Assembly (NCBI RefSeq): GCF_026571515.1
Contig: NW_026855379.1
Span: 186,001-250,000 of the forward strand
DNA from: Ruditapes philippinarum
Taxonomy: Eukaryota
DNA: 64,000 bases
Direction of reading: 5' to 3'
Shown here: positions 6,201 through 58,500 of the stretch, in pieces
Numbering within the stretch: position 1 is the stretch's first letter
How the letters are laid out: every line of letters starts with the position of its first letter
The notes under the pieces: generated by a model
What the model was told of the DNA's origin: nothing
The model's input: the letters and a program-made list of their open reading frames with translations, nothing else
The model's database searches: none
Made by a program: the position numbers and the translations under genes

Positions 6201-9200
6201 CTTTATGTTCATTACAAAACAATTTTGTCTTTTCACTTAGATTTTTATATAGATTGCAGTGTTGACATATGATGTGGTAAAAGTATTGAAAAAAGTTGTT
6301 AGAAAGTTAATGTTTGATTAACCGTTTCCATGCAAATTTTTTTTTTTTTTACCTTACAAACATTAGGGGAAAAATATAGTTTTCCTGTTTTCAGACCAAA
6401 ACTGTCCATCTACCAAAAAAATAATTACTATATAATTGTGATATACAACTTTTTCCTTAGCCCCCACTTAATTTGATCATATTTGAAAATGAGATAATTA
6501 CTTATGTGATTTTAAGGTTTGAATCAAGCAGTTTATTTCTTTTTTTAATTTCTGCTTGTGGCATATAATATGGGGAAACTGAGTATGGCTTGCAGGATAA
6601 AGAACATATTTGGCAGTGTGATAATCTGGTAATGGATAAGTTATATATATGAAATAATTTCAATCTTCTTTCATAGATAACCTCCACAGGCCAACTAGAA
6701 GGGTGATCACCAAGGAAGAAATGAAGGAAATGACAAAAAAGTAAGAACATCCTATATTCAAATATTATTAAACTATTGTATTTTGTCATAGACTTTCATG
6801 GTGTTTGAATGTGTATTGTTAAAACAATGTTTTTTTTTTAAGTAACAAAGTAAAAACTTTTATACACCAACAGTGAGTCTGAGAGAATCTTGTGAGTCTA
6901 GTCCAGTTTGCAAGCTGGCCTTTAATGTATATTGATGACATAAAAAATTTTCACCACCAAAGTTCTTAGAAATATCAGGCATACAAACTCTTGTGCTCTG
7001 TTAGGCGTGGTTGTATAATCACTGTATGGAAAGCTCAAGGCATTCTCTGAGTTGAAGGGGTGTCTAACTACTTTGAATGCATTGTTTGTGCCACCATTTA
7101 ATCCTTGAACTTGTGGTTTGACATTTGCCTAGTTTAGGTATTATTACCATTAAAAAAATGTCCGAATGCAAGGATTTGTAGCATTTTTTCTGTTTTTAAG
7201 TCGTCTTTAAATGCAAGGGTTTATGGCATTTTCAGTTTTGAGGTCATCTAATTAATAAATGCAAGGTTTGTGGCATTTTCAGTTTTGAGGTCATCTAATT
7301 AATGAATGCAAGGTTTGTGGCATTTCTGTGTTTAGAGTGTCTTAAGTCTGAAGTACTTGTGTTTAGCATGGCCAAACCATTAAATTCAGGTCTTTGATAT
7401 AGTCAAGTTTTATATCAGTATATCACTAACTGTGTAGTAAATTATAATATTGACCTGCTGGTTAATGACATAAAATTCATAAAGTGTAGTGACTAAGGTG
7501 TGAACATAATATAATTTTATTACATCAACTGTCAATTATATGATTTGTTTGATAGACAAGACAATTCAACCTGTCTTCATTAAATATAATGTTATAGGTT
7601 TTTAAGCCCCCACAGTAGTTTTGGTTACTATAGTAACATAAATATTTTAAAGAAATGCCTTAAAAGACTGATTCTATAACAGCCTAAAAGTATAGTCATG
7701 ATTTTATGAAACTGATTTGAATGGTAATTCATATTTTTCTGCAGTTGCTATGGTAACAGAAATAATCAAAATGAGGCTCTTAAATATTGACTGTGACCAA
7801 TATCTCAAACAGCGTGTATTTAAGCTAGGTTAAATTTATTTGATATAAATGTAAATATGTACGAATATTTTGGTAATGGATGCATGTAGAATGTTCACTT
7901 TAGTTGGTTGTTGTTTTTTTTAATTTTTAAGATAAATTGTTGTTAAAGTATATGCATCTGTATCTAGTGAATTATTTTTTTATATAAATTCTATAATTTA
8001 AAAGGTGATTTTATTTTGCTTCCATAAGCTTATGGTCAATTCTCAAGTTGAAAGATATAATGTCTGTGTTAATATGTTAATAAACACACATAAATATGTC
8101 TCTGTTATAGACACACTTGAATTTTGCACATGTATATAAACAGAATTAAATATAAAATGTTCTGGAAGAAAATAGTATGAAGTTATTTTAAGAAGGGGTT
8201 TATCCATTTCTATTCGCTTATAGCCATCCAAGAATAAGATAATGAAAATTTACTGAATAGTCAGAACTGGAAGGGGACTTATACCAGTTGTTATTCCAGC
8301 CACCATTGCTTATATTATATTGATCATGTAAAATATTGGTCGCACATAACAATTAAATTAGTCATTAATTACACATACATCATTTTAGATGGTATGTTAG
8401 TCAGTAATTACTGATATATTATTCCAGGTGTTGTGTTAGTCATTAATTTACACATGATGTATTAATTATTTCAGACGTTACAAAAAGTTACCGGAGGTGT
8501 TGGAGCAACAAAAAATGAAGAAACGTCAGGATGAATATTCGCTCAATAGAGTTAAAGCTCGCCTATTCAATAGGGTAAATATTCTAAATGAACATATCCC
8601 TAGTAACTTATAAAATAGTAGTCCATTTTATTGTCTTAAAGCTGTATGCCTCCATATGAGCCAAAATATTTTAAGAAAATCAATATTGAGAAAAATGTAC
8701 TTAAATTTTAAGAAAGGTAAAAACATTCAAGATCCAAGTTGTATTTTATTTTACATGTTATGTGCGGTTTAAGACTGATTTTGCAGTATTTTATCACCAT
8801 ATTTCTACTGCTTACTAATGCAGTAAGGGATGTTTTTTTTAATGTTGACCACTTTTTGTTAATTTTCTTGGGATTGTTATGCCATTTGCAATATGTAAAT
8901 TGATTTATTTGTTCACCTCACAATATTATACTTTTAAATACATTTCCAAAATTTTCATGAAAATTAACATGAATCTGGAGGCGTGCTGCTTTAATTTATT
9001 GAATGTTTCATACCAATTCACACTATATGAGCCCTCTATAGTGAGATGGTTTAGGTTGATAATTGAGCCGCGTCACAACAAAACCAACATAATGGGTTTG
9101 CGACCAGCATGGATCCAGACCAGTCTGCGCCTCCGTGCAGTCTGATCAGGATCCATGCTGTTCGCTATCAGTTTCTCTACTTGTAATAAAGTTGGTAAGG

Positions 9201-10273
9201 GAACAGCATGGATCCTGATCAGACTGTGCGTTTGCGCAGGCTGGTCTGGATCCATGCTGGTCGCAAACCCATTATGTTGGTTTTGTCGTGATTCCGCTGA
9301 TATTATTTTTTTCATCGAAGGAACTGGCTACATTATATGTTATTTTGGTTTTGGAGTGATATATGTGGATATATTACCTGTTAAGATTTTATATCACCCG
9401 AGCCGTTAGGCGAGGGTGATATTTTATCTTGGCAGGTAATATATCCACATATATCACTCCAAAACCAAAATAATAATTTTATTACCCTTCCCCTGCCGAG
9501 TTTAGACGATTTTTTAAAAAATCATTGCTGTTTCAAATGAAACATCAAATAAGATTCCCTTTAGGATACCACTTCGTCACAACATGATGTCACATAAATA
9601 CATGACGTATTTTTCCCGTACCTTACGAAAGTAAACAAGAGAAAAGGAGTAGTCTGTTGAACACACTTTTTTGTAATTAATATCAAGCTTTCACAAGGTC
9701 ATATTTGTTTTCGATACTGATGATTATATGCATCATTACTCTACTTTGGTAAATATTTATCATTTGACAGTTAAAAAGTGCTTTTAAATCGGAATTTACA
9801 CCGCGTAAAATCGAACCGTACGCGCATCACCTCAGCGCATATTGTTTACAACGTTGGGTACCAAACGGGGAAATTTAGTGTGTATATTACCCGTCTGGCT
9901 CGGTTATATCAATTTCTTTCGGGTGATCAATATCCAATCAAAAAGGCGGAAAAAATCTGGAAGGGTAATAAAATTGAATGGTTGTGTCTGAAAACAATGC
10001 ATTAAAGCTCATTTAAGATCTTCTACCCCCATTAAAACTGGCAAGTTACCATATAACCTTAATAGTGACTGTATGTAACTTTCAAAGTCGGCCACTCTTT
10101 AAAAAAACAAAAAAACAACTGGATCGGCTATGTTATTTTAATCTTTGTTCATGGCTATAATGTAAATAGAATTCTTCCGACTCTATATTGATTCTGATGT
10201 TTATATTAGCTTTTTTTATTTTCAGAAAATACAAAAAAAGGTTCTAGTGAAAGCAGAGAAGTGGGGAAGATAA
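39..10273 (+). CDS. ALMS1: ALMS1 (Alstrom syndrome centrosomal protein) orthologue, 3' part; spliced CDS 39-219, 738-984, 2290-2339, 2638-4604, 5129-5430, 5853-6027, 6677-6740, 8475-8574, 10226-10273; 5' end lies upstream of the window
   Basis: All nine exons have AG acceptors, the eight internal introns are GT-AG and the phases join without stops (2,0,2,1,0,1,2,0). C-terminus SLQEAFQARRANTISRLRERQKRL...RRVITKEEMKEMTKKRYKKLPEV...RQDEYSLNRVKARLFNRKIQKKVL is the ALMS motif. Upstream motifs SWF...PWRQPLKE and INDMWARFKER...RLDALSGLLHNP match my recollection of ALMS1-specific segments. Confidence 0.9.
272..525 (+). mobile_element. Degenerate Meta-type tRNA SINE in ALMS1 intron
   Basis: Colinear decayed match to the 12357-12638 element (gtggctgagtcgttaaggacgctgac; ttctttcctgtgaa; gtggttcta; gaaataatgcatgg). 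Confidence 0.7.
738..984 (+). CDS. ALMS1: ALMS1 coding exon (not in ORF track)
   Basis: attctag acceptor; open frame PVLDAGDDIKTSVDPPSYPLRPLEPVEPP...AKSPLNVRQK; donor aag|gtaaag. Confidence 0.8.
1078..1580. repeat. Near-perfect tandem duplication, 2 x ~249 bp, in ALMS1 intron
   Basis: tcactttattggtagttaaaac...ggtcctgaacgttaa starts at 1078 and again at 1327 with only a few mismatches. Confidence 0.9.
2290..2339 (+). CDS. ALMS1: ALMS1 50-nt coding exon
   Basis: ttttcag acceptor; EMEVELEKLNKQLTDQ; donor gt|gtaagt supplies the phase 2 needed to join the large exon. Confidence 0.75.
2638..4604 (+). CDS. ALMS1: ALMS1 large 1967-nt coding exon (charged coiled-coil and Ser/Pro-rich)
   Basis: Part of ORF 2486-4630; acceptor tttatag at 2637, donor gaag|gtaagt at 4605. 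Confidence 0.9.
4678..4980 (+). mobile_element. Degenerate Helentron-associated (HINE-like) non-autonomous element
   Basis: T-rich start, agctattgt, gaaacttcacaca, ataactct...aatgcccctttt core and gacagctcttgtt-like end, a layout typical of molluscan HINEs. Confidence 0.45.
5129..5430 (+). CDS. ALMS1: ALMS1 coding exon (SWF..PWRQPLKE motif)
   Basis: ttttatag acceptor, cag|gttaga donor, frame of ORF 5149-5445. Confidence 0.9.
5853..6027 (+). CDS. ALMS1: ALMS1 coding exon, ALMS motif part 1
   Basis: Polypyrimidine tract plus ctatag; EAFQARRANTISRLRERQKRLNLAAEQRKMEVFLQMERDRLF; donor g|gtaaaa. Confidence 0.9.
6677..6740 (+). CDS. ALMS1: ALMS1 coding exon, ALMS motif part 2
   Basis: ttcatag acceptor; DNLHRPTRRVITKEEMKEMTK; donor aa|gtaaga. 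Confidence 0.88.
7165..7335. repeat. Short tandem repeat, ~45-48 bp unit, ~4 copies
   Basis: aatgcaaggtttgtggcattttcagttttgaggtcatctaatt recurs. Confidence 0.75.
8475..8574 (+). CDS. ALMS1: ALMS1 coding exon, ALMS motif part 3
   Basis: tttcag acceptor; RYKKLPEVLEQQKMKKRQDEYSLNRVKARLFNR; donor agg|gtaaat. Confidence 0.9.
9065..9299. mobile_element. Sola2-like palindromic MITE copy 1
   Basis: TIR gagccgcgtcacRacaaaaccaacat; ~235 bp almost fully palindromic; 9 copies in window. Confidence 0.85.
9340..9971. mobile_element. Palindromic hairpin element (134-bp palindrome 9340-9473 plus an adjoining segment bounded by IR ttattacccttcc/ggaagggtaataa)
   Basis: Arms complementary; centre caccc-GA-gcc-GTTA-ggc-GA-gggtg; second IR at 9479-9491 and 9959-9971. 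Confidence 0.65.
10226..10273 (+). CDS. ALMS1: ALMS1 terminal coding exon
   Basis: ttttcag acceptor; KIQKKVLVKAEKWGR* completes the ALMS motif, including the near-terminal Trp. Confidence 0.85.
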   Translation, partial: KIQKKVLVKAEKWGR

Positions 10274-12638: not shown

Positions 12639-12983
12639 TTTGTGGAGCATATTAATGATTGTATGTCCTCTTTTTCTGTCAATTTGTCCTTCCCAATAAT
12701 TTACCCTTTCTCACAGCATTTTCTGATTATATAGCTAGTTGGTGTGTTTGCACCTTCCTTTTGACATCTACTTATAATTGAAGCTGTAAGTTTTTCATTT
12801 TATACTGCCTTTTAGTAAAGTTGTGTTTATAGCTTTGAATCAAAACAAAGTCAGGGAACAGTCATCCTAGTTTGCAACAACTGTTAATTTGTCAGATTGA
12901 AAATGAAGTAATTTAAACAGTTGAATAATCATCCATGTTACCAATCTAACTTCAGTGGCTAGTTGTGAATGTTGCTGATATAT

Positions 12984-13183
12984 GAGCCGCGTCACGACAA
13001 AACCAACATTATGGGTTTGCGACTAGCATGGATCCAGACCAGCCTGCGCATCCGCGCAGTCTGATCAGGATCCATGCTGTTCGCTATCAGTTTCTCTACT
13101 TGTAATAGAGTTGGTAAGCGAACAGCATGGATCCTGATCAGACTGCGCGGATGCACTATGTTGGTTTTGTCGTGACGCGGCTC
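12984..13183. mobile_element. Sola2-like MITE copy 2 (internal deletion)
   Basis: GAG..CTC termini, ATAT target duplication. Confidence 0.85.
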
Positions 13184-13460
13184 ATATATCTTTAGAGTTG
13201 TAGCCAGTCAATAATAAGTTAATTTGTAAGTTGTTTTTTTTCTAGAAATTCCTGTATATGCTTTATATATTTTATAAAAAAAATCGACTATGAACTTAAA
13301 ATGTAGAACAGTAAATTAATAAGGGCATTCTATTGTAGGGGAAATTTTGTGATCGCAGTTGTATATCTGTTTTTTTTTTTTTTTCAAAGCCCTGACTAAT
13401 TCAATTTAAGCGTTACGATGGATGTTTCGTCAACTGGCTTAAAAATAGCTTTCTCAGTTA

Positions 13461-19935: not shown

Positions 19936-20302
19936 ATTATATGAATATGACAGCAAATAGCGTTAGATGAACAGTTGACAAGTTTAAAACATCTGGATTT
20001 GTTTTCATCTTTTTAGTTTTATACGGATTTTTTTTTATAAATAAGTTTTATATCATATAATACAATAGCTTGCAAGTAAAAATCTGTATTATTGTCCTTC
20101 ACAAATCAGATTTTACAGTGTATGCCATGCATCACCGTGACATAGTTTCACTACGTAATTACATGTTTATAATATGTGTTTTGTAAATAATACAAACTGT
20201 GTGTTATTGTATGTAAGTTGGATTTAATATTGTCAATGAAATTAGTCTTATTTAGTGATAGTACGTAGTATGTGACTGGAATTTGTATTAATCATTTGAT
20301 AT

Positions 20303-20522
20303 GAGCCGCGTCACGACAAAACCAACATAGTGCGTTTGCGACCAGCATGGATCCAGACCAGCCTGCGCATCCGCGCAGTCTGATCAGGATCCATGCTGTT
20401 CGCTTGCCAACTCTATTACAAGTAGAGAAACTGATAGCGAACAGCGAACTGCGGATGCGCAGGCTGGTCTGGATCCATGCTGATCGCAAACCTATTATGT
20501 TGGTTTTGTCGTGACGCGGCTC
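20303..20522. mobile_element. Sola2-like MITE copy 4
   Basis: GAG..CTC termini, ATAT TSD. Confidence 0.85.
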
Positions 20523-21183
20523 ATATATTACACAATCACTTACCGCCATCGTCATCATAAAAAGGAAGAAAAAAAGAAAAGCAAAACAACATTAATAACG
20601 TTATTAACTTTTTTTGCGAACCGGATTTCAGTTTTATTATCGGATCAAAATTATCATTAATTTTTTTGTAATCAATGGCGTCGGTAAATTATGACTTTGC
20701 TTAATATTACTTATATTTTGTATTTTGCATAGGCATCTTAATTCATTTTTCGTATGCGAATTTTGAACAAATTGAAAACATCTTTTCTTTTATGCTCAAG
20801 AACGCATATGATTTCAATGTGATTTTCGCACATGTATAAATATTTCTTTAAATTTAGGATGATATTTTAAGTACCGCTTTTACTTCTTTAAAGATCCTGT
20901 ATCACAATATTTTTACGGTTTTATACAATAAATATGATGCTCAAATTCAGATTGATCAATATTGTAAGTTCCAAAAAGCATTATTTATAAAGATATTACC
21001 GAATTTAACATTTCATGTTAATAAAGGGAGGTAAATTAGTAATTCGTTTTGTCAAATATTTCAAAAAGAAATGAATGCATATACATTGTATTTTAATGAT
21101 AACATATATTTGCAGTAAATATTTTACATATTCTTCGATGGTTGAAAATTGTTTTATAAGCATAAATATATAGAAACATAAAT

Positions 21184-21314
21184 GAGCGGCGTCACGACAA
21201 AACCAACATAATTGGTTTGCGACCAGCATGGATCCAGACCAGCCTGTGCATCCGCGCAGTCTGATCAGGATCCATGCTGTTCGCTATCATTTTCTCTACT
21301 TGTTATAGCGGCTC
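21184..21314. mobile_element. Sola2-like MITE copy 5 (right arm deleted)
   Basis: Both termini kept, AAAT TSD on both sides. Confidence 0.8.
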
Positions 21315-21531
21315 AAATAATGTATTCATTTCAAATTACGATAGCCCGGTGATAAAATCAAACATTTCGAATTTATATTACTTGATTATCATTATTGTTT
21401 GACCATATCAGTTGAATAAATATACATGTATGTGTAAAGAAACGCGCATCTCAAGCCAAGCTAAAATTAAAGAAAAATTAGTAAGCGTTTTGAAGTATAA
21501 AGTGAATAAATATTATAATTTAATGTTAAAT

Positions 21532-21725
21532 GAGCCGCGTAACGACAAAACCAAAATAATGCGCAGTCTGATCAGGATCCATGCTGTTCGCTTACCAACC
21601 CTATTACAAGTAGAGAAACTGATAGCGAACAGCATGAATCCTGATCAGACTGCGCAGATGCGCAGGCTGGTCTGGATCCATGCTGGCCGCAAACCCATTA
21701 TGTTGGTTTTTTCCTGACGCGGCTC
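21532..21725. mobile_element. Sola2-like MITE copy 6
   Basis: Same family, deletion in left arm. Confidence 0.8.
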
Positions 21726-22835
21726 GAATATGCTCTTAAAATATTGCTCATTTTACAGTTGGTAAATGCATTTCCTTGCATGTGATCGAAAAACTGATAT
21801 AAGCTTGCAATAAATGATTCAGTGACCGGAAGTAAAAAGGTGTTTTATTTCTAATGTCGGCATATATTTTAATCACGCATAATTAATGTGATATACTACA
21901 TGTACAATTTTATAAGAACTGTTAGTCATTATTCGTCTATTTTATTATGTGACATTTTGGCCGGACAAGCCATATTATAACTGCATACTATGTATAGATA
22001 TTAGTCAAACGTTTTCTTACCTATGTGAATATTTGACTTTATGGCTCTTGTTGTTACCAATGTGAATATTTGGTCAATCATGCCTTATTTAAACTATGTT
22101 AATACATGTATTTGATTTTATAGGTCTTTTTTGTTAACTGTGTGAATGATATCAATATTTTGGTCAAACCAGTCTTATTTATGTAAATTTTTGGTCATAT
22201 GCATAATGTTATAACTACTGGAAAATACGTTTATACATAGTTATAACTACATGTATGTGAATATATACATGTAGTCATGCTATTAGAATTTAACCGTAGG
22301 AGTATTCTGACGGAGTTGTGGTCAATATCAAACCATAATTACATGTCATTAATGTCAATAAACAATAAATAAATTGTCAGGATGACCACAGCCGCAATAA
22401 TTGTCCTATACTATTAGTAAGACATAAAACACAGATCTGGGAAATATCGGAAAAACAAAACAAAAAACAATAAAAAACCCAATAACAAAAGAAGCATGCA
22501 TTTTACAGCTGATTTTCGTGTTGCAGTTTTTTGTCCCAGTCGTAAACTTCTTAGTGCTATTGCATGATTACCTAACGATATTTTCTGTCCTTAGAGTGAA
22601 ACTTTACATCTGGTATTTGTTCCATTTTAAGAGAAACTAATTTTGATAATCTAATGTATCGAATCGTATATTAAGTGGCAAAAGAAAATGAATGGTAACG
22701 AGTGGTAGCAAGAACCAAGAATGCACAATGTATAAATAAACTAGAAATTTCTTCACGTTTGCAAAGTCTTTGGTTGTTGCTGTGAGATTATCTATATATG
22801 TACATTATAGTTGTAATCTAGAAATTTCTTCATAT

Positions 22836-23070
22836 GAGCCGCGTCACGACAGAACTAACATAGTGCGTTTGCGACCAGCATGGATTCAGACCAGCCTGCG
22901 CATCCGCGCAGTCTGATCAGGATCCATGTTGTTCGCTTACCAAACCTATTACAAGTAGAGAAACTGAAAGCGAACAGCATGGATCCTGAACAGACTGCGC
23001 GGATGCGCTGGCTGGTCTGGATCCATGCTGGTCGCAAACGCACTATGTTGGTTTTGTCGTGACGCGGCTC
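22836..23070. mobile_element. Sola2-like MITE copy 7 (full length)
   Basis: GAG..CTC termini, ATAT TSD. Confidence 0.85.
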
Positions 23071-23681
23071 ATATGTAGAAAGAGTTTTGCTAAGAGCGAT
23101 CAAATTTAATGTTAAGTCTTACCTTGGGAAGAATTACTTCTGTTGTTATAAAGATGTTATTGTACTGCAGACGGTCGTTTTGCAGAGGTTGCTCCGTAGA
23201 TTGACATAAATTTACTCACATTTCTTTTACAATTTAAGATTTTAAATATTTTCAATATGTTGATTTTAGTAAGGAATTACAATCAGAACGATATATTTAA
23301 GTCTTACGTTTTTCAATAAAACAGGAATTATCCAAAACATACCCAAGTGAATGTAACACAGCAAATTGATATTGATTTGAGAATTCTCGTATACACTTTA
23401 CAAAAAATGTTTTTTCTTTGATATATCAAATTTGAAAGAACAATTAAATTTTCAAAGAAAACCACGAGGGAATTTATTGATCCATCTTTAGTCTCTATAA
23501 GGAAATATTACAGTCTGAATATTCTTACTTTCTATTGAAATATACCAAAGAATATTGATGCATATATGTAATCCAAAGATTAATTTGTTGACATATACAA
23601 ACAAAAATATATGTCTAACTTATTCGACTTTACTTTGACAGAAATTCACCCATTTATCAGGAGATAAAAGAATAAAACAAA

Positions 23682-23790: not shown

Positions 23791-26700
23791 GTAAATATAT
23801 AGACGCAGTGCTCCATGCTTTTTAAAACAACCTTCTTATATCTAAATTAATAATTGTTATTAATCTAAAATTAAAGTGATATTTACGGCACTATTTTTGT
23901 CTAACATTCTTTTTAAAATCTTTTACAGTTGTTAATAAAAAATTAAAAAATATTTGCATCGATCTATGTTCCCACAAGGTGTAACGATATTAAAGGTTTT
24001 GCATTTTTATAATGACAACTTTTAAACGTCATATTTACAAATAACATGCGACATCCGGGTTTTTATCTAGGTCTATTGATCCTTGGTGCTTACCAATGTA
24101 TCATATGAGCCACGTCACGACAAAACCAACATAACGGGTTTGCGACCAGCGTGGATTCACACCAGTCGGTGCTATCGCACAGTCTGATCAGGACCAATGC
24201 TGTTCGCTATCAGTGTCTTTACTTGTTATAGGGTCTGTAAGCGATCAACATGGATCCTGATCAGACTGCGCGGATGCGCAGGCTGGTCTGGATACATGCT
24301 GGCTGCAAACACATTATGTTGGTTTTGTCGTGACTTGGCTCATATGATTTTTTTCATTATTTTATCTTGAAATAACAAATTTGTTTTTCCAGGAAAATAA
24401 AGGAAAGAGGGCAATTCATTTTGTTTTACTTTTGATTTTGTTTTCTATGACAAGATTGAATGTTTTTGTTATTTTCAAATTGCTTTACGTGCCAGACAAA
24501 ATTGCCGGCGTTTATTTGACATTTGCATGCTTGATATTAAAGACAGACGCATTTATATCCGAATAAAGGCGTTAGTCGAAATATTGAAAGATTTATGATT
24601 GTTACGCATGTGATTTCGAAAATGTTACATGTTAAACTAATTTCAAATAACATTGAATGCATCGATCATAAGTTACCATTTTACATTGACTTATATCACA
24701 CGATCTAAAGCAAGAAATATTGGCGGCGTTGCCTAGTGGTTAACGCGTCGGGCTAGTAATCTTAGGATTGTTGACCGCTTGGGTTCAAACCCTGTTAAGG
24801 GCAAACCGATGTTTCCTTGAGCAAGAAACTTTAAATTCATTGTTAAGAACTGGTTTGTTCTAGGAACGGATTCGAGAGTATTTCAATAAGCTTATAGCTT
24901 CCTACAAAATCGAACTAAAATAAATTCGTACAAACTAAACCATCAGCAAAATCGTCGTTTGTTAAACTTGCTTTCGTATAGAAAAAATACAGAATAGTTA
25001 TATTAAATGGAAAACAAAATATGTTCTTCCTGGTTTTAGAACTTCTAAAAAGAAGGTTTGAAAAAAGAAGTAAAAACAAAATAAACATATATCCTCAATC
25101 CTTATTGGACAATTCACTTAAACATAAAATACCAAAGTATGATATCTTCTTTTCTTATGTTTCAGTTGGTTGTACAAAATTCATGTTTGAGGGAAAAGGT
25201 GACTTTCGAGTACAGAAGAAGATCTACCAAGCTCAGAATTCTAAACATTATATTGAATCATTACGCCTGATAAAGAGGACTTCATTCTACAAATGTGAAC
25301 CTAAGGCTGAGAAGTATGGTAGGTGTCTTCTTTAAAGAGTTGCTTTATAGAACAGTATGGTAGGTGTTTCTTTATTGAACAGTATGGTAGGTTTTTCTTT
25401 ATAGAATATGAAAAATATAAACTAAAGTTCATATCTATAGCGTTGTTTCGGAGCTGATTTATTTCATCGTCCTCTCATATCATCATACTTTGTCGTGCCA
25501 TACCTTTATATCATGTCATGTGACGTGAGGTATGGTCTTATTTTATCATGGCATGTGACGTGAGGTATGGTCTTATTATATTATGCCATGTCACGTGAGC
25601 TATGGTCTTATTATATAATGTCATGTCACGTGAGGTATGGTCTTATTTTATCATGGCATGTCACGTGAGCTATGGTCTTATTATATTATGCCATGTCACG
25701 TGAGCTATGGTCTTATTATATCACGTGCCTTTTGACGTGGTCTTATTATATTCTGTCATGTAACGTGAGGTATGGTCTTATCAAATCATGTCATGTCACA
25801 TGAGGTATGGTCTTATCAAATCATGTCATGTCACATGAGGTATGGTCTTATTATATCATGTCATGTCACGTGAGGTATGTTTTTATTATATTATTATGCC
25901 ATGTCACGTGAGCTATGGTCTTATTATATCACGTGCCTTTTGACGTGGTCTTATTATATTCTGTCATGTCACGTGAGGTATGGTCTTTTCAAATCATGTC
26001 ATGTCACATCAGGTATGGTCTTATTATATCATGTCATGTCACGTGAGGTATGGTTTTATTATATTATTATGCCATGTCACGTAAGGTAAGGTCTTTTTAT
26101 ATCACGTCACTTGTGACATGGTCTTATCATATTCTGTTATGTCACATGAGGTATGCTCTTATCATATAAAGGTATGGTCAGATTAGGGTATTATAGCACA
26201 TGTCATTTTGAATTAAGGATATCCTGTATCATTAAATGTCATATCATTTTCTATGACATCGTATCATGTTTCATATCATAATGCATATCTTAAAAGCATA
26301 GTATATCATTATATCACACCATATTATATCATATCTCGTATCATTTCAGGTATTTCAGAGGATGGTCATTCATGGTGGGTAGACAAAGGGTGTGAAGCTA
26401 TATTTGAAGTGATTGAGTGTCCAAATAATGGAAAAGTCCCTCCCCCAGGTAACCTTCCTTTATAACATCCCACAGCCAAGTCATTTGTAATTGGTCCTAA
26501 ATAGTCACACAGTGACCATTCACTTATCACAGTTGTTACAGAAGATTACTATTTGCCCAATCAAATTGGCCTCAATGAAATTTTTGTTTATTGTCAATAG
26601 TTAATTAGTATTCAAAAAGTTTAACAGTAGAAAATAAAAGAAAAAATTCAACGGTTAATTATATGCTTCCTTTTGCTTATTCTATAAACCATATATCCTT

Positions 26701-27285: not shown

Positions 27286-29072
27286 TTGGATTGTCTTGAC
27301 ATGCAGATATTTTTGTACATATTGTCCGTATTGGCTCTCATTTCAAACTTGTGTTTGTTATCCGGGATAAAACTCACACAGTTCAAATATACATACATGT
27401 AATTCATATAATTGGCCATCGTGTTCATTTTTGCACGTTCGAGCGTTTACTTGTTTCATGAATCCAATATTAAATGCTGAAACATCAATAATAAACGAAT
27501 GCTTTATGTTTAAAATCTTGGTTATGATTGATATTGTGCATAAACAAGTGCTACAACTGGGGTTGGAATTAGAAATCATAATATGATTTATAAATAAAAG
27601 AGAAACGACAGATGGTCTGCTGTTTCTTCTCTTTACTGATGTGTTCTAAAAATGTTGTTGTGCAAAGTCATAGTGATTATGAAATAAATGATTTTCAGTA
27701 AAACCAGAGACAAATCAAAGGATTGCAAGTTTGTTTCATTCCCTGCCATACCATTACTCCAACAAAGGCGCTGTCTTCTATTTAGAGTCATATGAATGGA
27801 TTTCCCGGGGACAGGGGTGACGGGGGCTATAAACAAACGCCATGTCATGCGTCCTGCAGATTATTTCACACTGTTTTAAAGAGTCGAACATAAACGAAAC
27901 CACAAAGTACGCCCACTTTCCCCGTTTACTCATGTGCATGAAAATAGCCGAATCTATTTAACTACATATTTAACCGCTAACGATTGAATTGTTTGTTTAT
28001 AATAAATGTTTGTCCAAATATTTTAGATAATAAATTTCGATTCTTCTTTTCGGATCGTTATTTCCAAAGGTGTTGCAAATCTGTGGATTCGGGTTATTCG
28101 TATCATCAAAACGTTGTCATTAAAATTTTGATTGGAATAAACTTCAATTACTTAAATGTTTTGCTTTTTTATATTTATGTGACCAAACTATTTATAATTA
28201 TTTAAAACTTTTTGTTGTTTATTCAGATTTTAAAATTACATTGCAGGCTTAATGAGCTTATATTTTAATCGAAATTTTTTCCTTGCCAAACTCTTTACTG
28301 ACATGTAGAAAACTTGAATTTGCATAAAATATCGTAATAATAGTTAACATAATGTAAGAAAAAAGTTACACGGTTTTGTTTCTGTCGAATTTAGAAAGGC
28401 TTATTTTTTTACACATTTTGACCGTTGTAATTTGTTTAGGACGGGATGTAATATTTTATAAAACATTGGTTATCAAATTAAAAAAAAAAACAAAAAAAAA
28501 AAACACTAATAAAAAAGGGGATTGTACAAAAATGTGTGGTAACAAAATTACCATCCAGATGCCGTGAAAATGGTTTCTTACTAAAATTGCCTGTCATAGT
28601 CAACATTCAACATACATTCAGGTAACGTCCTATAGTATAAGTTCCGTCCATTTTTTGTAAGTCCTTAAAACATTAAAACATAGATCATGTTAAAATAAAA
28701 TTGGAACATTGCCAAACCTTCTCATTAAAGCATTAAGGCAATGGCGAGCTTGATCAAATTTTATATGTATAACACCAAAAGTTCGAAACGTTTTAAATAG
28801 TGTTTAGATAAATAATCAAAGTATCTTACTAACCTTCTATCACAAAATAAATACCCACAAATAGTAGTAGCAAACCAAACATATTCGTTTTACAAATGAC
28901 TAAGTCTTATAATGATTCGTAAAGTTTTCATCTTTTTGTCGTCTTGAAGAATTTCCAAAAGGTCTGCAAACCTATATATTCCTGCAGAGGTTATAGTAGA
29001 TTAAAATCAATTATCATATATTGTCGCGATAAAGGTACGGCAACATTTATTTGTTGATGTCGTGTTAGAATC

Positions 29073-29245
29073 GAAATAATATATCCCAAACAGTGATTTT
29101 ATCGCTTGATAAAATCACTGTTTGTCGTCCGGATGCGCATCATTACATCACTCGGGCTACGCCCTCGTGATATAATTCCTCGCATCCGAACTCCAAACAG
29201 TGATGTTCTTGAGCGATAAAATCACTGTTTGGGATATATTATTTC
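29073..29245. mobile_element. 173-bp palindromic hairpin element with nested arm hairpins
   Basis: gaaataatatatcccaaacagtgattttatcgct...agcgataaaatcactgtttgggatatattatttc; minus-strand centre cac-GA-gggc-GTA-gccc-GA-gtg; partial second copy at 49816-49903. Confidence 0.75.
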
Positions 29246-30310
29246 TTAAATAACACACACATACGGTTCTTTTTTATTCAATAGTGAAAAATGCGGGTCG
29301 TGTTAGAATAATAATTTTGATATATGGATCAATATATAACACTCTTCATTTTATTATATTTCTTACATTTCTTATAATGCTTTTCCTGATTTTTGTCGTT
29401 TTTCCAAACTTAAGACAACTGTTTATCAACCTGTGTACATAAAAAATCTATTTCATGCATTTGTAACTATTTGAAACAAAACTGGTCAAATAAGAAAAGG
29501 ATACATAAAACACTCAAATGTAATGAGTACCTAACTATGATACGAGCATCTTAATGCACGAATGAAGTTCTGCCTACTGTGCTATCAAGGCACATGAAAA
29601 TATAACGTTTAAGATCTATTTTGTTTTTCATTTATAAAGCTTCAGTCTGCTTTACCTAAATTTTCGCATTGTTATCAATTTTTACACATAGGCTCAAGTA
29701 CTTCGGCCAAAATGCCCCCAGGATAATATTTGAAAACAACGTGTGAAACATATCTCCAATATCTAATGCATACGAGTATATAACGTTTTTGAAACGTTCA
29801 TGTTTTGCAAAATTAAAACAATTATGTTATATACATAAAATGAAAAGTAGAAAAAAACTTTAAACTCAAAATTTTCCAAAAAATAAATATGATTATCTTA
29901 AAATCTCATAGTGATCTTAAAATGACGTTAACTAATAACTAATTGGTATGCGTAACTATTGTTGTATATAAACCAGTTCAAGGCATATCTGTGAAAATTA
30001 GCCTCCTTATCAATAACATAAGGCAATGGCATATTTTTTAAGTCTGCCCTTTAATAAAAGGGCGGACAACTCTTTGTCCCTTTCTCGTAAGAGAAGGGGA
30101 ATCTTGTGATGCGTGTATGTGGTCGCACGGTCACTTTCTTTCAAACATGTCCTCGATGCATGTATGTGGTCGCATGGTCGAAAATCTCTAATATAATGAC
30201 AACGTTAACAAAAATCTTAAATACGAGAATTAAAATCTTATCTAAGAGCAGCTTCATAAGTCTAAATACAGACTAAAAAGTTTTTAAAAACTTCTTACAA
30301 GCAAAGTTCT

Positions 30311-32423: not shown

Positions 32424-32653
32424 GAGCCGCGCCACGACAAAGCCAACACATTGGGTTTGCGACCAGCATGGATCCAGACCAGCATGCGCATCCGCGCAGT
32501 CTGATCAGGATCCATGCTGTTCGCTTACCAACTCTATTGCAAGTGGAGAAACTGACAGCATGAATCCTGATCAGACTGCCTGGATGCACAGGCTGGTCTG
32601 GATCCATGCTGGTCGCAAACGCACTATGTTGGTTTTATTTTGTGACACAGCTC
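32424..32653. mobile_element. Sola2-like MITE copy 9
   Basis: Same family sequence and TIRs. Confidence 0.8.
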
Positions 32654-39290: not shown

Positions 39291-42200
39291 TACATTTTAT
39301 TTTCTCTTATTTCAAGAATTCTTATACATGACCACCTTTCTATTTAAGTCATATAAAATTCAAACATTCAAATATATGTAATTCATAATTCATATCAAAA
39401 TATTTGCAAGCCTCGGTAAATTAAAAAAACCCACTTCTTAATTAAATAATTGAATCCAAAAACAAGAAGCCAAAACCTTCTTTATTCATAAAAAAATTAA
39501 ATTCAGTTTCTTTACTATTAGGATGCTTCTTAATTTGTTGATTAATCAGGTACTATGATGTGAATGCATCAAACTTGAATTTGACCTGTTCAATGTTAAA
39601 TGTTAATTCTGCTTAAGCCGGTGCTTGAGGGCGTCGAAGTTAGCTTAAAATCACCACTACTGTTCATAAACAGGCTTAATCAAACTGAGCTTGCAACATT
39701 TTCAATTGTGCCGTGACAGGCCCTCTTTTTCTATATTTTAATGTACAAGTACTACAGTTTGTGAAGTGACTCAATCAAACCAAATTAGTTTCTTTATTAT
39801 TAGGACATTTCTAAACTTTTGATTTATCATTTTGTCAGTTGTAAAGGTTGGGTATTATGTCATGAAGAATGATTTTACTATTATTACTATTCATGAACAG
39901 GCCTAAGGAAACCCAATCAGAAACATTTTTATTTTGCTCTGATGGGTTACCTTGAAGTGTTCAAGTTAATATGTTTAATTATTCATGAAAGAGAAAACAT
40001 TGAAAGAAATTTGAACTTAAATTTTTGATTTTCATAACAGTAGTAAATAAAACACAAGTTTTAAATTGAATTCTTTGCCGTTAATTGCAAGAAAACATTA
40101 AGCACTCAAAAAAAGAAGAAAGAAAAAGAAGAGAAATAATAAGTTTTGCAAAAAGAAAAGAAAGAATAAAAAGGAAAGAAAAAAGAAGAGACATAATGAA
40201 ATTTGCACTATCGCATGTTTAAATATAACTTTTTTGTACGGATCATTCATCATTTTCATTTTCTAAGAACTAAAGCAGTTGCGTTTTTTTGATATTTTAA
40301 ACTCTCTTAAACATTGTGGTTAAAAGATAATTATATTATGAAATAATCTAGATGTTCAGAAAAAATGTAATATCGTTTACTGTATACTTTGACATTGGGA
40401 TAAGTATTGATTTGAAGGTAATTAAAGATGATTTAATTACTACTGTGACGTCATTCGTACTGTACAGGCAGGTGTCCAATATTAATGTGTACGTCCAATA
40501 TGTATCGTAACACATAAATATAAGACAGTGTGTCGTGTAGTATGACCAAAGGACTTTGTTGAAAAATTATCAAAATAAAAAAAAAAAAAGATTTAGTAAA
40601 ATGTAACCTGTTATATCAGAAGGTTAAAGTAGTAATTTAAGTAAGATATAAGCCTAAAACTGACAAATTAGTAAAATATTGAATTCCCTTCGGCGCTATG
40701 CGCCTCATATTTTACATATGGCTTATATCTACTACACACACATATATATATATAGCATAAATGGCTTAGATGCATATGTTGTGCTCTATAGATATAAGAT
40801 ATATTTGGCGGGAAATATTTGCAATGGATTGAGACAATATAAGCTAATATAGTATACACCGAATTTTAAATCACATACTGGCCAATGATTGATAAGGCTA
40901 AAGACATAAGTTGTTTCAGTAAAGAAACGTCGTATACTTTAAAGTTTAAACCATCTTCATGTTTAAGATTGAAACTTTTATTTATCAAACAACAACTGAA
41001 CTTGTTTATCAAAGAAATATGTACTAGTATAAGTTTATACTTACGTTGACAGCCATCTGTACAGCTGATCTACATTCCACTTTAGACATGTCTTGGCATT
41101 CCAACAACAACAAAAATAATAATAATAAAATCATGAAACAAAAATACTGACGCGGCGTCGACATTTTGAAAATCTTATTGTATATCCTTTAGATCTCTTC
41201 TATTTATAGTGTGTTTACAATTTGAGAGATTGATTGATGTTAACAGTTGGTTATTCAGCAGGCCAATTAAATCTAAATTTTGTTTATCTAATGTAAATGT
41301 TTTTTTATATATACACCGGATTTCTTTAAATAAATATGAATAAGCTACTGTAATAAATTGATTAATATTAAAGATAGATTAAAATTCTATAAAAGGTTTC
41401 GAAGACTTAACCTCATGGTCGCATTTGTCAATCATCATATCACAATGTCATACCAGACAATAATTAAAACGTTTACTTCTTCTACAGACCAATATTGCAC
41501 ATATATTTGTAAATTCATATAAAAACATATATTTCTGGGATATATCTGTATCAATGGATTGAAAAAATGAAAACTAAACCATTGGCTGTTTTGAAACATT
41601 GGTAATTATTTCAAAATCCCATAAGAAGAGCTTTGAAAATTTACTTCTTCCCTCTTTTTGTTCTTACACAATTGACCCAACTCTTTTCCGATCAAGTACT
41701 GTTCTATAAATTGATTTTCGATCGTTACACATTTTTATTTTATTTATATATATAAAAAGCGTATTCACTCATATTTTTAATCACTCTTATTACCTAGAAA
41801 ATACACATTTTAAAATGATTTTTGTTCTAGTTTGAAGGTTTAAGCAAATGTTAAGCAGCTTTTATTCAATATAACGTTAGCCAAACCAATTTTGTGACAT
41901 TTCTTTTCATATTCAAGTGAGTGCATTTATAAATGTATAATGTAAAATGAAATTGACATCGTCTATATACATTAATTGTAATCATAAAATTGAGTAGCGT
42001 TTTCAATTTGCACTTGATTTTTCTCTCAATAAAATTGTGCAATTTAGGGAGGGTCGCAAACAAATTGTAAATATCATTGATTAATGACTTGACAACAAAA
42101 TATTTACCTTTTTAAAAAAATCGTTAACGATTGATGATTGGGCGTGCACCACCTAGAAGCTAATAGGCAACTCATTTCAAATACTAGGAAACTAGGGAGA

Positions 42201-52858: not shown

Positions 52859-53902
52859 AGTAACTTAAGCTTGTTCAAAATATTTCCTACAAGTCCGAGT
52901 GCTCTGACCTTTAATTTATGTTACATTTTTTATTGATTGGTTTAGGCTAAGGGATGCAATCAAACTTAGAAAGATTCCATGTAATGGGAAACCTAAAAAA
53001 ACAAGACACGGAAAACCCGACAAAAGTTCAAAGTAGTTTCTGTTGGAAAAAAGAACAAGTCAATCGAAATTGAACATAACAAAATGAAATCCTACGTAAA
53101 AAAGAAGCAATATTGAAATCAATCTCATTTAGTATTTTGTATAAAAAAGGAAAACATGTTATCAAGGTCTTAAAGTGTATTATATGTTAGAATTATGGTA
53201 ATTGCGTAAATAAACCACAATAAGTCACCAAAAGCTATAACAATTAGAAAACAACAACATGACCTTTACTTTTCCTTCCTTTTTACTCATCGTCTATATA
53301 GGACCTTACAAAAAGATACCTGATACCACACAATACTGCTGTTTATGGTATTTCAATATTACATATATTCATATTCTTGTAACATGTAAAACTGTGTTTA
53401 TTGATATTCTTTGTGATAATGTCTATTTTACCTATATTTACACAATAATTTGTTCTGATACAAATGTGACAATTTGTATTTCTTGTCTTTTGTTATAAAA
53501 ACGTTTTGAAATAAATCTGCAATCTCTTATAAGTTCACTTTTTCAGTGTTATCAAGAAAAAACAAAAAAATCAATTGAATCACATATTGGAAAAACGTCT
53601 GTCTGTGCTTCAGAGATTGTTAAAATGGTGTTGATATTCTGAATACATGCAAAGCTAACCACTTTTTTTTCCGTAAGTAATTTATGCAAGAAATCAACCA
53701 CTGTTTTTTTCTAATAACAAGAAATGCTGAATATTTCTTTTGTGAAAAGGGTTTCAAATACCATTTTTCAACTTTTGTATTATTTTGTGTAGTGATAATA
53801 AAAAGTCATTTTAACACCTTATTTTCAGTCAATACTTCATGAATCAATATAGGCTGGAATATACATGTATATTATTAGTTATAAAGATTTTTTACAAGTT
53901 AT

Positions 53903-55536
53903 ATGGCCCTATGTAAACGGTTGTTTGTAAATATAACCCGAGCCGCTAGGCGAGGGTTATATTGCAAACAACCGTTTATATACTACAGTGTTCCGTTTGG
54001 ACAGTCGTGACTTTTAGTCTGTACCCACGATGGTACGATTGTGAAAACGCGATGGCACGATGGTACGATGATGAAAATGCGATGGTACGATGGTGAAATT
54101 GCGATGGTGCGATAGTACGATGGTGAAAACGCGATGTTACATCGCGTTTTCACCATCGTACCATAGTGATTTCACTATCGTACCATCGCGTTTTCACCAT
54201 CGTACCATCGCGCCATCGTGTTTTCATCATCGAGCCAACGCGTTTTCACCGTCGAGTCATCGCGTTTTCACTATCGTACCATCGCGTTTTCACCATCGTA
54301 CCATCGCGCCATCGTGTTTTCATCATCGAGCCAACGCGTTTTCACCATCGAGTCATCGCGTTTTCACCATCGTACCATCGTGTTTTTACCTTCGTACCAT
54401 CGCGCTATCACCATCGTACCATTGGGCTTTCACCATTGTACCATCGCGTTTTCACCATCGTACCATCGCGTTTTCACCATCGTACTATCGCGTTTTTCAC
54501 CATCGCGCCACCGCGTTTTCACCATTGTGCCATCGTCTTCCGGTTGTCATGCGCAATGTTATATTTTTATCAACAATGTATGCCTTCTCATTACTGAACC
54601 CCGCACCCTTTATATTTGTGTATCTTTTAAATCTTTGAATATTTGGAACATGAAATTAACAAAAGGCAATCACTCAAAAATTAAAAAAAAAATGTTGTCA
54701 TCCTTGTGCACTTTACATATAAAGTTTTTAAGTTATATATAAATATAAATATAAATAGATATATTAAATAAAGCAAGAGAAAAAATTCAGACATATATAT
54801 AGCATATACAAATGTATATCCATATATTAAATAGTCGTTGATCTATATACAGTATCACGACATAAATGGAAAATTTAATGTAAAGATAACAGGTTTTATT
54901 ATTTATAACTCAAATTAAATATCAAGTATTCTAAACTTGTTTTTATTATCTACCGTAACAGAATCTGACATCTTTCTGTATGTGTACTGATTATACTGAC
55001 CGAAAGGCGATGGTACGATGGCGCGATGGCACGATGGTGAAAACGCAATGGTACGATGGTGAAAACGCGATGGCACGATGGTGAAAACGCGATGGTACGA
55101 TGGTGAAAACGCGATGGTACGATGATGAAAACGCGATGGTACGATGGTGTAAGCGCAATGGCGCGATTGTGAAAACGCGATAGTACGATGGTGAAAGCAC
55201 GATGGTGAAAACGCAACGGTACGATGGTGAAAGCGCGATGGTACGATGGTGTAAACGCGATGGTACGATGGTGAAAACGCAATGGCACGATTGTGAAAAC
55301 GCGATGGTACGATGGTGAAAGCACGATGGTACGATGGTGAAAACGCGATGGTACGATGGTGAAAGTGCGATGTTACGATGGTGAAAGCGCGATGGTACGA
55401 TGGTGAAAACGCGATGTAACATCACATTTTCACCATCGTACCATCGCGTTTTCACTATCGTACCATCGTTCATCGCGGTAACAGACTAAATTAAAAATCA
55501 CGACTGTCCAAACGGAACACCGTAATATACGGCCAT
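53903..55536. mobile_element. Short palindromic hairpin element (53903-53983 + 55531-55536) interrupted by a nested insertion
   Basis: atggcc.tatgtaaacggttgtttg..aaccc-GA-gcc-GCTA-ggc-GA-gggtt..caaacaaccgtttatatac|ggccat once the insert is removed. Confidence 0.7.
53984..55524. mobile_element. IS3EU-like non-autonomous foldback element with inverted 22-bp arrays
   Basis: TIR tacRgtgttccgtttggacagtcgtga, TAC..GTA termini, 6-bp TSD ATATAC; arrays of gcgatggtacgatggtgaaaac in both orientations. Confidence 0.75.
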
Positions 55537-58500
55537 TTAACCTGTCAGAAATATTTATGACGAATTTATAATACAGCAAGCATCATTTTTAGAGGAATAA
55601 AGCGATATTTCTTTATTAATCGACAACAGCCGCGTATATAAAACTATATAAAAGTCACGATTATCCAATGAAAACCGACGTTACAAACGTGCAGTATTAT
55701 AATATGCACGATCGTACATATCAAAATCATGGTCAACCACATTAGTATAAAAATCGAATTGATATCTTTTTCAAGATACACGAACTTCTATTAGTCAAGC
55801 AAAAGAAATTATCGTAAAAACTTCTGATATACTTGTCATCTGTTACCGTTCATGAACAGGCTCAATCAAACCAAGCCTGCAACATTTTCAATTTTGTCGT
55901 TTTGTACGCTCTTTAGGAATTCCTTATTTCTCTCTATTTTTGCTAGAAAACTTAAAACACGTACGGCTTTTTATCTTGATAGTAACAGATCGTAAATTAG
56001 CCAAAGCTTCTCTTTCAAGGAACAATTTTATTTCATTATTCACTGATGTTTACAAAAAATATATAACTATTAGGCGAAACTACTATTAATGAGTTGTACT
56101 TTACGAGTGTAGCAGGCCATTTTAATCTGAGCATTACTCTTTGCTTGGCATTGATAGGTATACAATGTAAATGCTGTCAAAAACTTGGAATTCGATTTAG
56201 AGAAAGAAACTTGTAATGATAAAAAAACGTACTTCACTTTAAAGTCGTGTTTAATCTTTCAGTTATTCACATACTAGTATACTAGGAATATATTTAAAGG
56301 GAAAAAGAACATTTCTGGACTTGAAATACTTCGACATTGCTAAATATTTGTATACAACTTCATTTGCTAACTTCTTCAAAGTTCTAGATTAATAATATGG
56401 CACTCCTGTTTTTAAATTACATTAAGTGATTTGTGACTGTGTCTTATATTTTGATATGATTTGTCATTAAGTCATTTCTTTTATTCTCTACTCGTATGGT
56501 AAACTGAGTTGAAAAATATGGATAAAAACTACTTCAATGCATCTATTTTAACTGAAAAACGTTTGATAGTTATATATTCTGAATACCACATTTGAATACA
56601 AAGTAAGGGACATTAAATCATGATATCGGAATGCTGTAATTTTCTGAACATCCCAGAATTACTCCAAACTGATAGTTAAATACATGTAAGAAAGTTCATA
56701 AATATGATCGGTGTTTTTCGTTTAACAGCGATCATTCGTCAACCCTTGCATGATTGCGTAAGCTCATTTCACTGACCATTGTGTGACATGTTTCGTCATT
56801 TGATAAGGTCATGTCAATGTTTTCTTCAATCAATTTCAGGGGAAACTTGAATACCATATTATTCGTGATGACGCGTCTTCCTCTAAGACCGTTTATCTCT
56901 GGATGGAAATCTTATTAGAATTTCATGATGACTTCCTGACAGTTCTGTATTTTAATATAAAACTCGTACGATATAAATATGCCGTAAAGAAAAGAGTAGA
57001 ATAAAACATAGTCCATGTAGAACTTCAAAAAGGCAAAATTGAAAATGTTGCAGTCTCGGTTTGATTGAGCCTGTTCATAGACATATGACAGAGGCAAATT
57101 AACAAACACTATACATACAATTTAAACAACGACAGTCCCAAAAGCTCGCTTGATACTTTCATAGAATAAAAACAGGTAGCTTTTTCAAACATGTGCTTAT
57201 TTAAATTCAATATACCTGCAAGATTTCATACAGTTCACAAAGAGTTGAAGCTGTGCATTACAAAGGGAGCGGTGCAAGTCACGACGTCATTCCTACATCA
57301 ACGTGATTCATTGAAATTCTCACTTGACATTCAGGCTATGATTTCATTCAGTTCGACCTTGGTAAATAGCCTGGGCACCCAGCATACAGTTCTGTTCACA
57401 TTCCAAGAATGACTGTCTGTTTTCCGTACTGATCTCTAATCTGTAAGATACTTACACTTTCCTTTCGTCCGAATCGCCTGCAAAACTCCTTTTCAAATTT
57501 GACAAACGCCCGTACCATTTGCAAATCGTGCATGCATATATACATCGTCCGTGTTGCTTTTTTATCATTTTGTTCGTTTCATTACACGCATTACTTGGTG
57601 GTTATATTCAGTTTCTGGTAAACGCCAAATTACGACAATTTTGTTTATTTGAAAGAAACTACGTATGTGTTCTCTAAAATGCAAATTGTGCGTAATTATT
57701 AGAACTTTTGCCCTTAAGCTAACATATGCTTTACTGCTTGACATTTCAATAAGTCTATATGAAACGAGAGTTACATAGGAAGTCACCCTGACCACTATTC
57801 TTCCTATTCAGGCAAATTTATCACTCATTGATACTAAATTGCGTATTTCGCACGGGACGCCAAGTTAAAGACATTGTCCGAACGTGTCGGATATTGGCCT
57901 GCAATATTTTACCTTTCTGGAAAGGATGATTCGTTTTGTTGTAAAAAATCACTATTATAGAAGGAGTTATGAGTATTTGACGTGTGTTTCATAATTTGAT
58001 AATTTTAAAACACAGCTCAACTCTCATAATCTAAATATGTAGTCACCCTGTTCTTATCATTTTCTGACAATTTCACAAATGTCCATAATATGTGAACACA
58101 AGCCCGAGTCAACACAAAAATGGCAACTTCATGTTTTGATTAGCAAGATCCATGTAGGTCTATTAGAATAACATTTAAAGATATTTTTTGTTGTTCAGGC
58201 TAGATTTCAGAAATGAGAGTAATATTAATATATTCTCGATATAATATTCTAACAAAAAAGTACTAGTTTTTAAATTTCCATAAAAATCAGTACATCATTA
58301 GTTCAGTATGAATTAATCCATCAAATGGAGTTTCATAACATTTTCTTTTGCAGACTCGGTTTAGCCCACCGAAGGCATTGGTAAATTCACTCTACGGCAA
58401 ACATAATTGGCATAGAATAAAACTATTGGCATCAACATAAGCGAAAGTCGACAATTAAACGTATCAAAAGTGTTTAATCATGGCATTAGGACAACGGCAG

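Follow-up and report, generated by a model that had tools for sequence, protein, structure and literature searches.

Hairpin-capped palindromes at the left ends of Crypton-type elements in Ruditapes philippinarum, and their possible role in one-strand exchange

Palindromes tipped by a small hairpin with a tandem G.A mismatch stand at the left ends of transposable elements in the genome of Ruditapes philippinarum, and these elements, which we group into families A to D, are almost certainly of the Crypton type (probably CryptonA) together with its short derivatives. We lean towards the view that the capped palindromes, as Crypton left ends, fold one strand of the element into a substrate for its recombinase, and that movement proceeds by exchange of that strand alone. 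We infer such folded single-strand movement from the anatomy of the elements, their linkage to an enzyme, the form of their target and their one-sided products. Its main rival is a duplex circle that undergoes one exchange, which would give the same scars. The window referred to throughout is the whole stretch of DNA analysed, 64,000 nucleotides of contig NW_026855379.1.

The cap and its conservation

All five cap sites named in the original prediction are present in the window (Table 1), and the cap is commoner there than chance would give: a strict cap pattern matched 3 times, whereas 200 dinucleotide shuffles averaged 0.02 matches and never exceeded 1, and a 15-mer from the cap at 9391-9422 occurs exactly 718 times in the 1.41-Gb genome, its reversed control not once. 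The caps are a real feature and not free-standing sites, every cap being the tip of a palindrome of 130-175 bp that forms the left end of a non-autonomous transposon, chief among these the one at 9334-9971. A strict scan of random DNA, 580 kb in all, is not by itself discriminating for GA/GA caps; it returned 3 of the GA/GA type among 75 two-by-two hairpins, and five other classes also reached 3. When long arms were required in the scan, 7 of 20 hairpins were of the GA/GA type, the remaining 13 being one satellite family or AT runs.

Table 1. Caps, element families, element parts and target sequence located in the window
Feature	Positions	Strand	Remarks
Family A non-autonomous Crypton-type element, complete, 638 bp	9334..9971	+	full-length copies at other loci 86-97% identical
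Left-end core TATATG, 6 nt	9334..9339	+	unpaired in the predicted fold, opposite 9474-9478 (6-vs-5 bubble)
Terminal palindrome, 134 bp	9340..9473	+	
Internal splint	9479..9491	+	complementary to last 13 nt of the element; contiguous with the right arm, which pairs with the left end
Right end, inverted splint copy	9959..9971	+	655 exact right ends in genome
Target left half-site ACAT (family pattern ATAT)	9330..9333	+	from flank counts (n=36) and the empty allele
Target 6-bp spacer AATTGA and right half-site ATGG (family pattern ATAT)	9972..9981	+	
Cap hairpin 1	9391-9422	+	outer stem 9; inner GCC/GTTA/GGC
Cap 1 core	9399..9414	+	C-GA-GCC-GTTA-GGC-GA-G: tandem G.A mismatch, 3-bp stem, GTTA loop
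Cap hairpin 2	53930-53963	+	outer stem 10, loop GCTA; core 53939-53954
Cap hairpin 3	29147-29171	-	outer stem 5, GGGC/GTA/GCCC; core 29151-29167
Cap hairpin 4, decayed	40690-40706	-	GA-GGCGC-ATA-GCGCC-GA
Half copy of element	49813-49908	-	family C, left arm broken inside the cap; 94% over 96 nt
Family B element, 5' part	53873..53983	+	92% to intact 283-bp copy; 93% to left end of L128 5.9-kb element
Family B element, 3' part	55525..55702	+	a 1.5-kb TIR element, itself unrelated, lies between it and the 5' part
Family C element, first 215 nt	29035..29249	-	98% to intact 413-bp copy; family in 30 loci
Right-end remnant of second family C copy	29249..29308	+	the 29035..29249 copy is inserted into it, inverted
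Decayed terminal palindrome, family D	40626..40736	-	78-79% to capped palindrome of DUF3504 loci L056, L058

Across all loci we collected 36 distinct cap cores, which include related ones and so are not independent. Every one carries Y-GA-R on both sides, a context that favours sheared G.A pairs, and the scan had required only the GA. An invariant CGAG on both sides, found in 117 of 117 caps under a stricter filter, was relaxed to this form because only 31 of the 36 cores have it. The inner stems, of 2-6 bp, vary in sequence and keep their pairing, and the two GA steps lie 7 to 15 nt apart with an intervening stretch that is always self-complementary. Compensation from one arm to the other within families is rare, at 1 event in 1595 cells for family A and 1 in 1932 for family C, too few to use. 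The arms had also been described as completely different, which does not hold for the copies at 9395 and 53935, where 33 bp around the cap are 91-94% identical. Persistence of a GN(N)A loop proved true of 25 cores (21 GNA, 4 GNNA) but not of the remaining 11 (TT in 5, TCT in 2, others in 4), and these 11 of 36 were counted against the folded-strand reading.

The cap has a direction. In family A it reads into the body in 365 copies and is flipped in 5 (5/370), 4 of the flips being independent; the reverse pattern matched 10 times, comprising these 5 true flips and 5 dimers read backwards. A flip-flop of the tip, as in rolling-hairpin copying, was rejected on the rarity of the flips. ViennaRNA DNA energies for the cap strand and the other strand (-114.0 and -113.6 kcal/mol in A, -74.4 and -77.4 in B, -102.0 and -103.8 in C) give no preference for the cap strand in these three families, so the strand asymmetry rests on published G.A stability and not on computed folding. 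Tandem GA-AG steps stack with unusual strength (PMC8163305), and mini-hairpins of the GNA and GTTA kind are highly stable as DNA (PMC13037366). The flipped caps, the rarity of arm compensation and the even folding energies were likewise counted against the folded-strand reading. The sequence variation of the caps points to a hairpin formed by one DNA strand, as originally proposed, and that it folds in vivo we infer.

The elements and their recombinase

The palindrome at 9340-9473, from which the original prediction started, is real, but as a unit it had to be given up: it is not a whole MITE, only the left end of the 638-bp family A element. In 30 loci selected by the cap, similarity to the window ends a few bases left of the palindrome and continues rightward, and the exact ends at 9334 and 9971 were set by nested copies and by the empty allele in run X7. 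Among 30 family A loci chosen by the right end, the core TATATG is present in 21 of 21 complete left ends, the other 9 loci being truncated or long copies. The T/T mismatches in the family A arm are kept in 29 of 29. An intact family B copy measures 283 bp. The nesting of one family C copy in another that is seen in the window recurs at L132-L136, L145, L146 and L149.

The genome contains 149 matches to DUF3504 (PF12012), of which we took 40 as 10-kb stretches, picked by score and apparent family and not randomly. A capped palindrome is present in 20 of these 40 loci and in 5 of 58 random 10-kb stretches (Fisher p 9e-6; with several copies per family among the loci, neither the counts nor the p value is independent), and 23 of 24 caps in the DUF3504 loci are oriented toward the recombinase gene. 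Of the 20 of 40 loci that lack an intact cap, several belong to capped families as copies with a deleted or corrected tip, and some are blank. PF00589 loci carry the cap in only 2 of 30, one being a DUF3504 element and the other a family A copy. Metagenome loci of related recombinases have the cap with arms in 18 of 80, with 0-2 matches for each of ten control mismatches, and only 13 of 19 metagenome caps are oriented toward the gene. The capless DUF3504 loci and this looser polarity are further observations that we counted against the folded-strand reading.

Multi-copy elements of 2.2-4.3 kb start with a capped palindrome, and the short families are tied to long copies by their ends. Family B shares both ends with L128, a 5.9-kb element in which the first 165 bp (96-98%) and the last 75 bp (88%) of the family flank a recombinase in two frames; family A is paired with C332 and C243, in which its left end and last 354 bp flank a recombinase gene, and a long partner is also found at C510; family D shares an end with L056 and L058. 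For family C no long partner was seen among the DUF3504 and PF00589 loci compared. The sole long family A copy with a whole palindrome is C332, whose cap is flipped and altered, and this too was counted against the folded-strand reading; a DDE-like frame in C332 is a nested insertion, missing from C243 and C510. The prediction of non-autonomous elements dependent on a Crypton-type recombinase was thus borne out, long copies of A and B encoding that enzyme.

In the recombinase frames that were aligned, DUF3504 is recognised in 14 of 14 and Phage_integrase (PF00589) in 11 of 14, and the catalytic R, HxxR, H and Y occur in one frame in 7 of 14, the rest being partial or altered frames. In two 2.2-kb elements, E1 and E2, the recombinase accounts for every frame of at least 200 aa, and no polymerase, primase or reverse transcriptase frame was seen in the 2.2-kb elements. 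A tree of 24 rows sets 21 DUF3504 rows apart from 3 DIRS-type rows. Caps occur in four of its recombinase clades, two of which have them upstream of the gene and two downstream; in two clades the cap strand is the antisense strand of the gene, in two others it is the sense strand. Among named proteins the closest are KIAA1958-like and ZMYM-like ones of molluscs, bivalves among them, and of cnidarians, and a sequence search of solved structures matched only QRICH1. Membership in the Crypton group is supported by the DUF3504 recombinase with R-H-R-Y, the shared ends, and the absence of an own reverse transcriptase or DDE gene, of target-site duplications and of symmetric terminal inverted repeats.

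The splint, the insertion site and the products

The elements are laid out as left end, arm, cap, arm, splint, body and right end, where the splint is an inverted copy of the right end placed directly behind the palindrome. Since the right arm pairs with the left end, the arm end and the splint together are complementary to the junction of right end and left end, save for a bubble of a few nucleotides. The predicted fold of whole elements of families A, B and C brings both ends adjacent to each other on the splint. A splint match of 12-24 nt is present in 18 of 31 elements tested, five of the 18 coming from metagenome contigs; in 13 of 31 the match is weak or absent, and these were counted against the folded-strand reading. 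At the joint the bubble of A and B is 6 versus 5 nt, but in C, E1 and E2 the junction strand exceeds that by 2 nt, so a uniform 6-versus-5 bubble was rejected. The two termini themselves do not match as inverted repeats; the right end has its inverted partner in a subterminal position.

Nested copies (L028, two in L014, L018, and family C in family C) have neither a target-site duplication nor added bases, and in run X7 an empty allele of the window locus joins 9333 to the sequence of 9972 onward; this allele is one contig of depth 8.3, with 28 letters on its shorter side, in 1 of 4 sequencing runs. The comparison of empty and filled sites proposed at the outset has in this way confirmed the lack of duplication. 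Insertion falls at the 5' edge of a spacer of 6 bp that is flanked by AT-rich half-sites in inverted orientation, the target pattern of family A being ATAT^A-N5-ATAT (n=36) and a second pattern TTAT^T-N5-ATAA (n=23). Suffix/prefix overlaps in the AT-rich flanks have no fixed length (zero in 20 of 36 for family A), terminal direct repeats measure 0 bp in A and B and 1 bp in C, and family C is found in both orientations at one host site, at opposite edges of the same 6 bp (L151, L133). This geometry is that of a tyrosine recombinase, for which spacers of 6-8 bp are described (PMC3212892). The suggestion that the cap is itself the recombination cut site was rejected, as nested copies and the empty allele place the exchange point at the base of the hairpin, ~65 nt away.

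The products are one-sided. Only 9 of 655 family A right ends continue into an element core, and all 9 are exact head-to-tail dimers; the opposite-strand product, with the core on the right end, occurs in 0 of 655, and every product found was that of the cap strand. If two exchanges took place across unmatched spacers, a second product class with the core on the right would be expected. The first base of the spacer is the base that would pair with the splint at 40 of 46 right ends in family A (dimers excluded), 28 of 28 in family C and 9 of 11 in family B.

How the elements may move, and what it would mean

We propose that, once the cap strand becomes single-stranded, as it might at a replication fork or through extrusion, the stable G.A-mismatch tip would start a hairpin on that strand. 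The splint would bring both element ends together, and the recombinase would cut and join the cap strand alone, releasing a folded single-stranded circle. This circle could enter a double-stranded target by one strand exchange, the bubble hindering a second, and host replication would resolve the junction as in integrons, where one strand is exchanged and replication resolves the product (PMC3458562).

It is possible, if rather unlikely, that Cryptons instead move as a double-stranded circle, and that the palindrome and the internal inverted site serve, in duplex or cruciform DNA, to bind protein or as accessory sites, with one-sided products arising from biased repair or from a single exchange followed by replication. 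Movement as such a circle is the current model in print (PMC3212892, PMC13565253), where the mechanism is described as undemonstrated and assumed to be double-stranded (PMC13565253). Exact head-to-tail junctions are compatible with any circle, the folding model has no strand preference, and one-sided products would be expected also from a double-stranded circle with one exchange or from strand-biased repair. A circle that undergoes two exchanges, however, should leave the opposite-strand product that is absent from all 655 right ends; the variable distance between the GA steps, across a stretch that is always self-complementary, fits a fold better than duplex binding; and a double-stranded circle needs no internal copy of its own junction.

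We think it unlikely that the cap works chiefly as a signal for replication or priming, whether of second-strand synthesis or of hairpin-primed copying, with recombination a separate matter at the ends. Mini-hairpins do occur at single-strand origins (PMC13037366) and in Streptomyces telomeres (PMC5449611), in integrons strand choice does not depend on the terminal structure of attC (PMC2727003), the cap lies ~65 nt from the cut, and tandem dimers exist. Hairpin-primed copying, however, should flip the tip, which is flipped in 5 of 370 copies, and should erase the arm mismatches that are kept in 29 of 29, and the 2.2-kb elements have no polymerase or primase frame. A priming role is compatible with recombination of a folded strand, and the cap may serve priming instead or as well.

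A role of the structure in RNA seems very improbable, and so does its origin as an unselected by-product of palindrome decay. Tandem G.A pairs are stable in RNA too, and tip deletions and corrections are common in older copies, but a cap strand antisense to the gene in two clades and sense in two others, an Rfam search of the window with 0 matches, 2.2-kb elements without a reverse transcriptase frame, and Y-GA-R in 36 of 36 cores all speak against it. Scarcely credible is a set of ordinary DDE MITEs, or of HUH-dependent (Helitron, Replitron, IS200-like) elements as the original prediction had also entertained: splint and right end do flank the body as an inverted repeat, and HUH elements typically have hairpins close to their ends, but target-site duplications and terminal inverted repeats at both termini are absent, the target has a half-site and 6-bp-spacer form, and the long copies that share these ends code for a tyrosine recombinase, no HUH gene having been seen in those examined.

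Returning to the folded strand as our preferred reading, the elements resemble CryptonA (Kojima & Jurka 2011, PMC3212892; Glomhopper, PMC13465315) in their DUF3504 recombinase with catalytic residues, lack of target-site duplication, animal host and abundant non-autonomous derivatives with both ends in common. The capped palindrome, the junction-complementary splint and the 6-bp-spacer target, in contrast, are absent from the available text of PMC3212892 and PMC13465315, and the words 'hairpin' and 'palindrom' do not occur in the available text of these two papers or of PMC5753468. Animal Cryptons are reported without terminal repeats and fungal ones with 4-6-bp direct repeats (PMC3212892); the 4-6-bp terminal direct repeats of fungal and oomycete Cryptons are absent here (0-1 bp), which has no bearing on CryptonA. 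The superfamily is known, and the capped-palindrome end structure was not found in the Crypton and Eulor papers searched; families A to D may well be catalogued in Repbase or Dfam. Eulor5 and Eulor6, human repeats reportedly described in Repbase as self-complementary, offer a possible parallel. They are classed as ancient Cryptons (PMC5753468) and, as non-autonomous relics in animals, are alike by description.

Integron attC x attI recombination (PMC3458562, PMC2727003) and CTX phage share with these elements a tyrosine recombinase, an imperfect palindrome whose structure is better conserved than its sequence and, in the predicted fold, an unpaired central spacer; exchange of one strand with resolution by replication would be a further likeness, which the predicted bubble and the one-sided products fit. 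Both systems, however, are bacterial and use IntI or host Xer with a fixed platform site, whereas the enzyme here is an element-encoded DUF3504 recombinase, and attC is one contiguous hairpin, whereas here a three-way fold would hold two ends on an internal splint. DIRS elements (PMC7192593) likewise have a tyrosine recombinase, single-stranded DNA intermediates and an internal stretch complementary to both termini side by side. Unlike the present elements, which have no reverse transcriptase, they carry Gag, RT, RNase H and long inverted terminal repeats, and their internal complementary region is exact (88 bp in DIRS-1) and is thought to restore the ends before a duplex circle forms, whereas here the bubble is kept. 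The d(GCGNAGC) mini-hairpin and the palindromes of Streptomyces telomeres are similar in their C(GNA)G and C(GTTA)G loops with sheared G.A pairs, which make stable, nuclease-resistant single-stranded DNA (PMC13037366, PMC5449611), and differ in that their described roles are priming and end patching and not that of recombinase substrates.

Whether animal Cryptons are the eukaryotic equivalent of integron cassettes and CTX phage, moving as a folded strand whose two ends sit on a DIRS-like internal splint and which a conserved G.A-capped hairpin marks, is in our view evenly poised. If true, tyrosine-recombinase elements of the DNA and retro kinds would share a common end logic, and a compact one-strand integrase that uses a 4+6+4-bp target would be at hand. 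Several human genes as well as Eulor5 and Eulor6 descend from the Crypton group (PMC3212892, PMC5753468). With exact ends, a cut position, a target pattern, candidate intact enzymes such as the frames in L064 and L072, and a predicted substrate fold in hand, single-strand and double-strand models become directly comparable, and the cap offers a marker with which to find and delimit such elements in other animals.

Insertions among and within the families

The palindromes and internal sites of one family serve as insertion places for other families (L013, L014, L017, L018, L024, L028, L003 and L161), and a family A copy was found within the recombinase gene of family A's own long partner. A family B copy in the window is interrupted by an element with terminal inverted repeats of about 27 bp and a 6-bp target duplication, inside which lie inverted arrays of 22-bp repeats.

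Features of the window and loci discussed in the text
Feature	Size	Position or locus	Remark
Intronless frames, two, similar		45368-46363; 51393-52358	
Fragment of a third such frame		49284-49652	beside family C half copy
Open frame	715 residues	2483-4630	many charged residues
Inverted-repeat element	1541 bp	53984-55524	
Fold-back repeat, whole or partial copies	~240 bp	9064-9308; 12978-13189; 20286-20529; 21166-21308; 21527-21737; 22832-23074; 24103-24350; 32423-32658	8 copies
Arm mismatch or cap correction		L064:3878-3934; L065:3884-3940; L072:3833-3985; L050; L067	
Partial family A matches		L361; L030; L369; L355; L221; L360; L351	

Uncapped palindromes and reading frames

The fold-back repeat of the window lacks the G.A cap, the tandem mismatch at the palindrome tip, and is very highly abundant in reads. 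A satellite of short palindromic units (L176, L177, L208) accounts for the majority of the remaining long palindromes seen in random DNA. By eye, the two intronless frames look like G-protein-coupled receptors, and the charged open frame is probably a single large exon. Most loci matching the Phage_integrase profile PF00589 (L081-L110) have a long overlapping frame upstream, and these matches form a separate clade; they are probably DIRS-type retrotransposons.

Breaks and possible repair in the palindromes

Partial matches to family A start at element positions 71-96 in 6 of 12 cases, the cap occupying positions 66-81, and breaks therefore cluster at the hairpin tip. Besides the cap, the multi-copy recombinase elements E1 and E2 carry an additional CGAG/CGAG mismatch farther down the arm. 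At the like position in E4 pairing is perfect: one copy has CTCG/CGAG there, another has CGAG/CTCG. In one E1 copy the cap itself has been turned into perfect pairs. The perfect pairing of E4 copies in either form and the corrected E1 cap suggest arm-templated repair.
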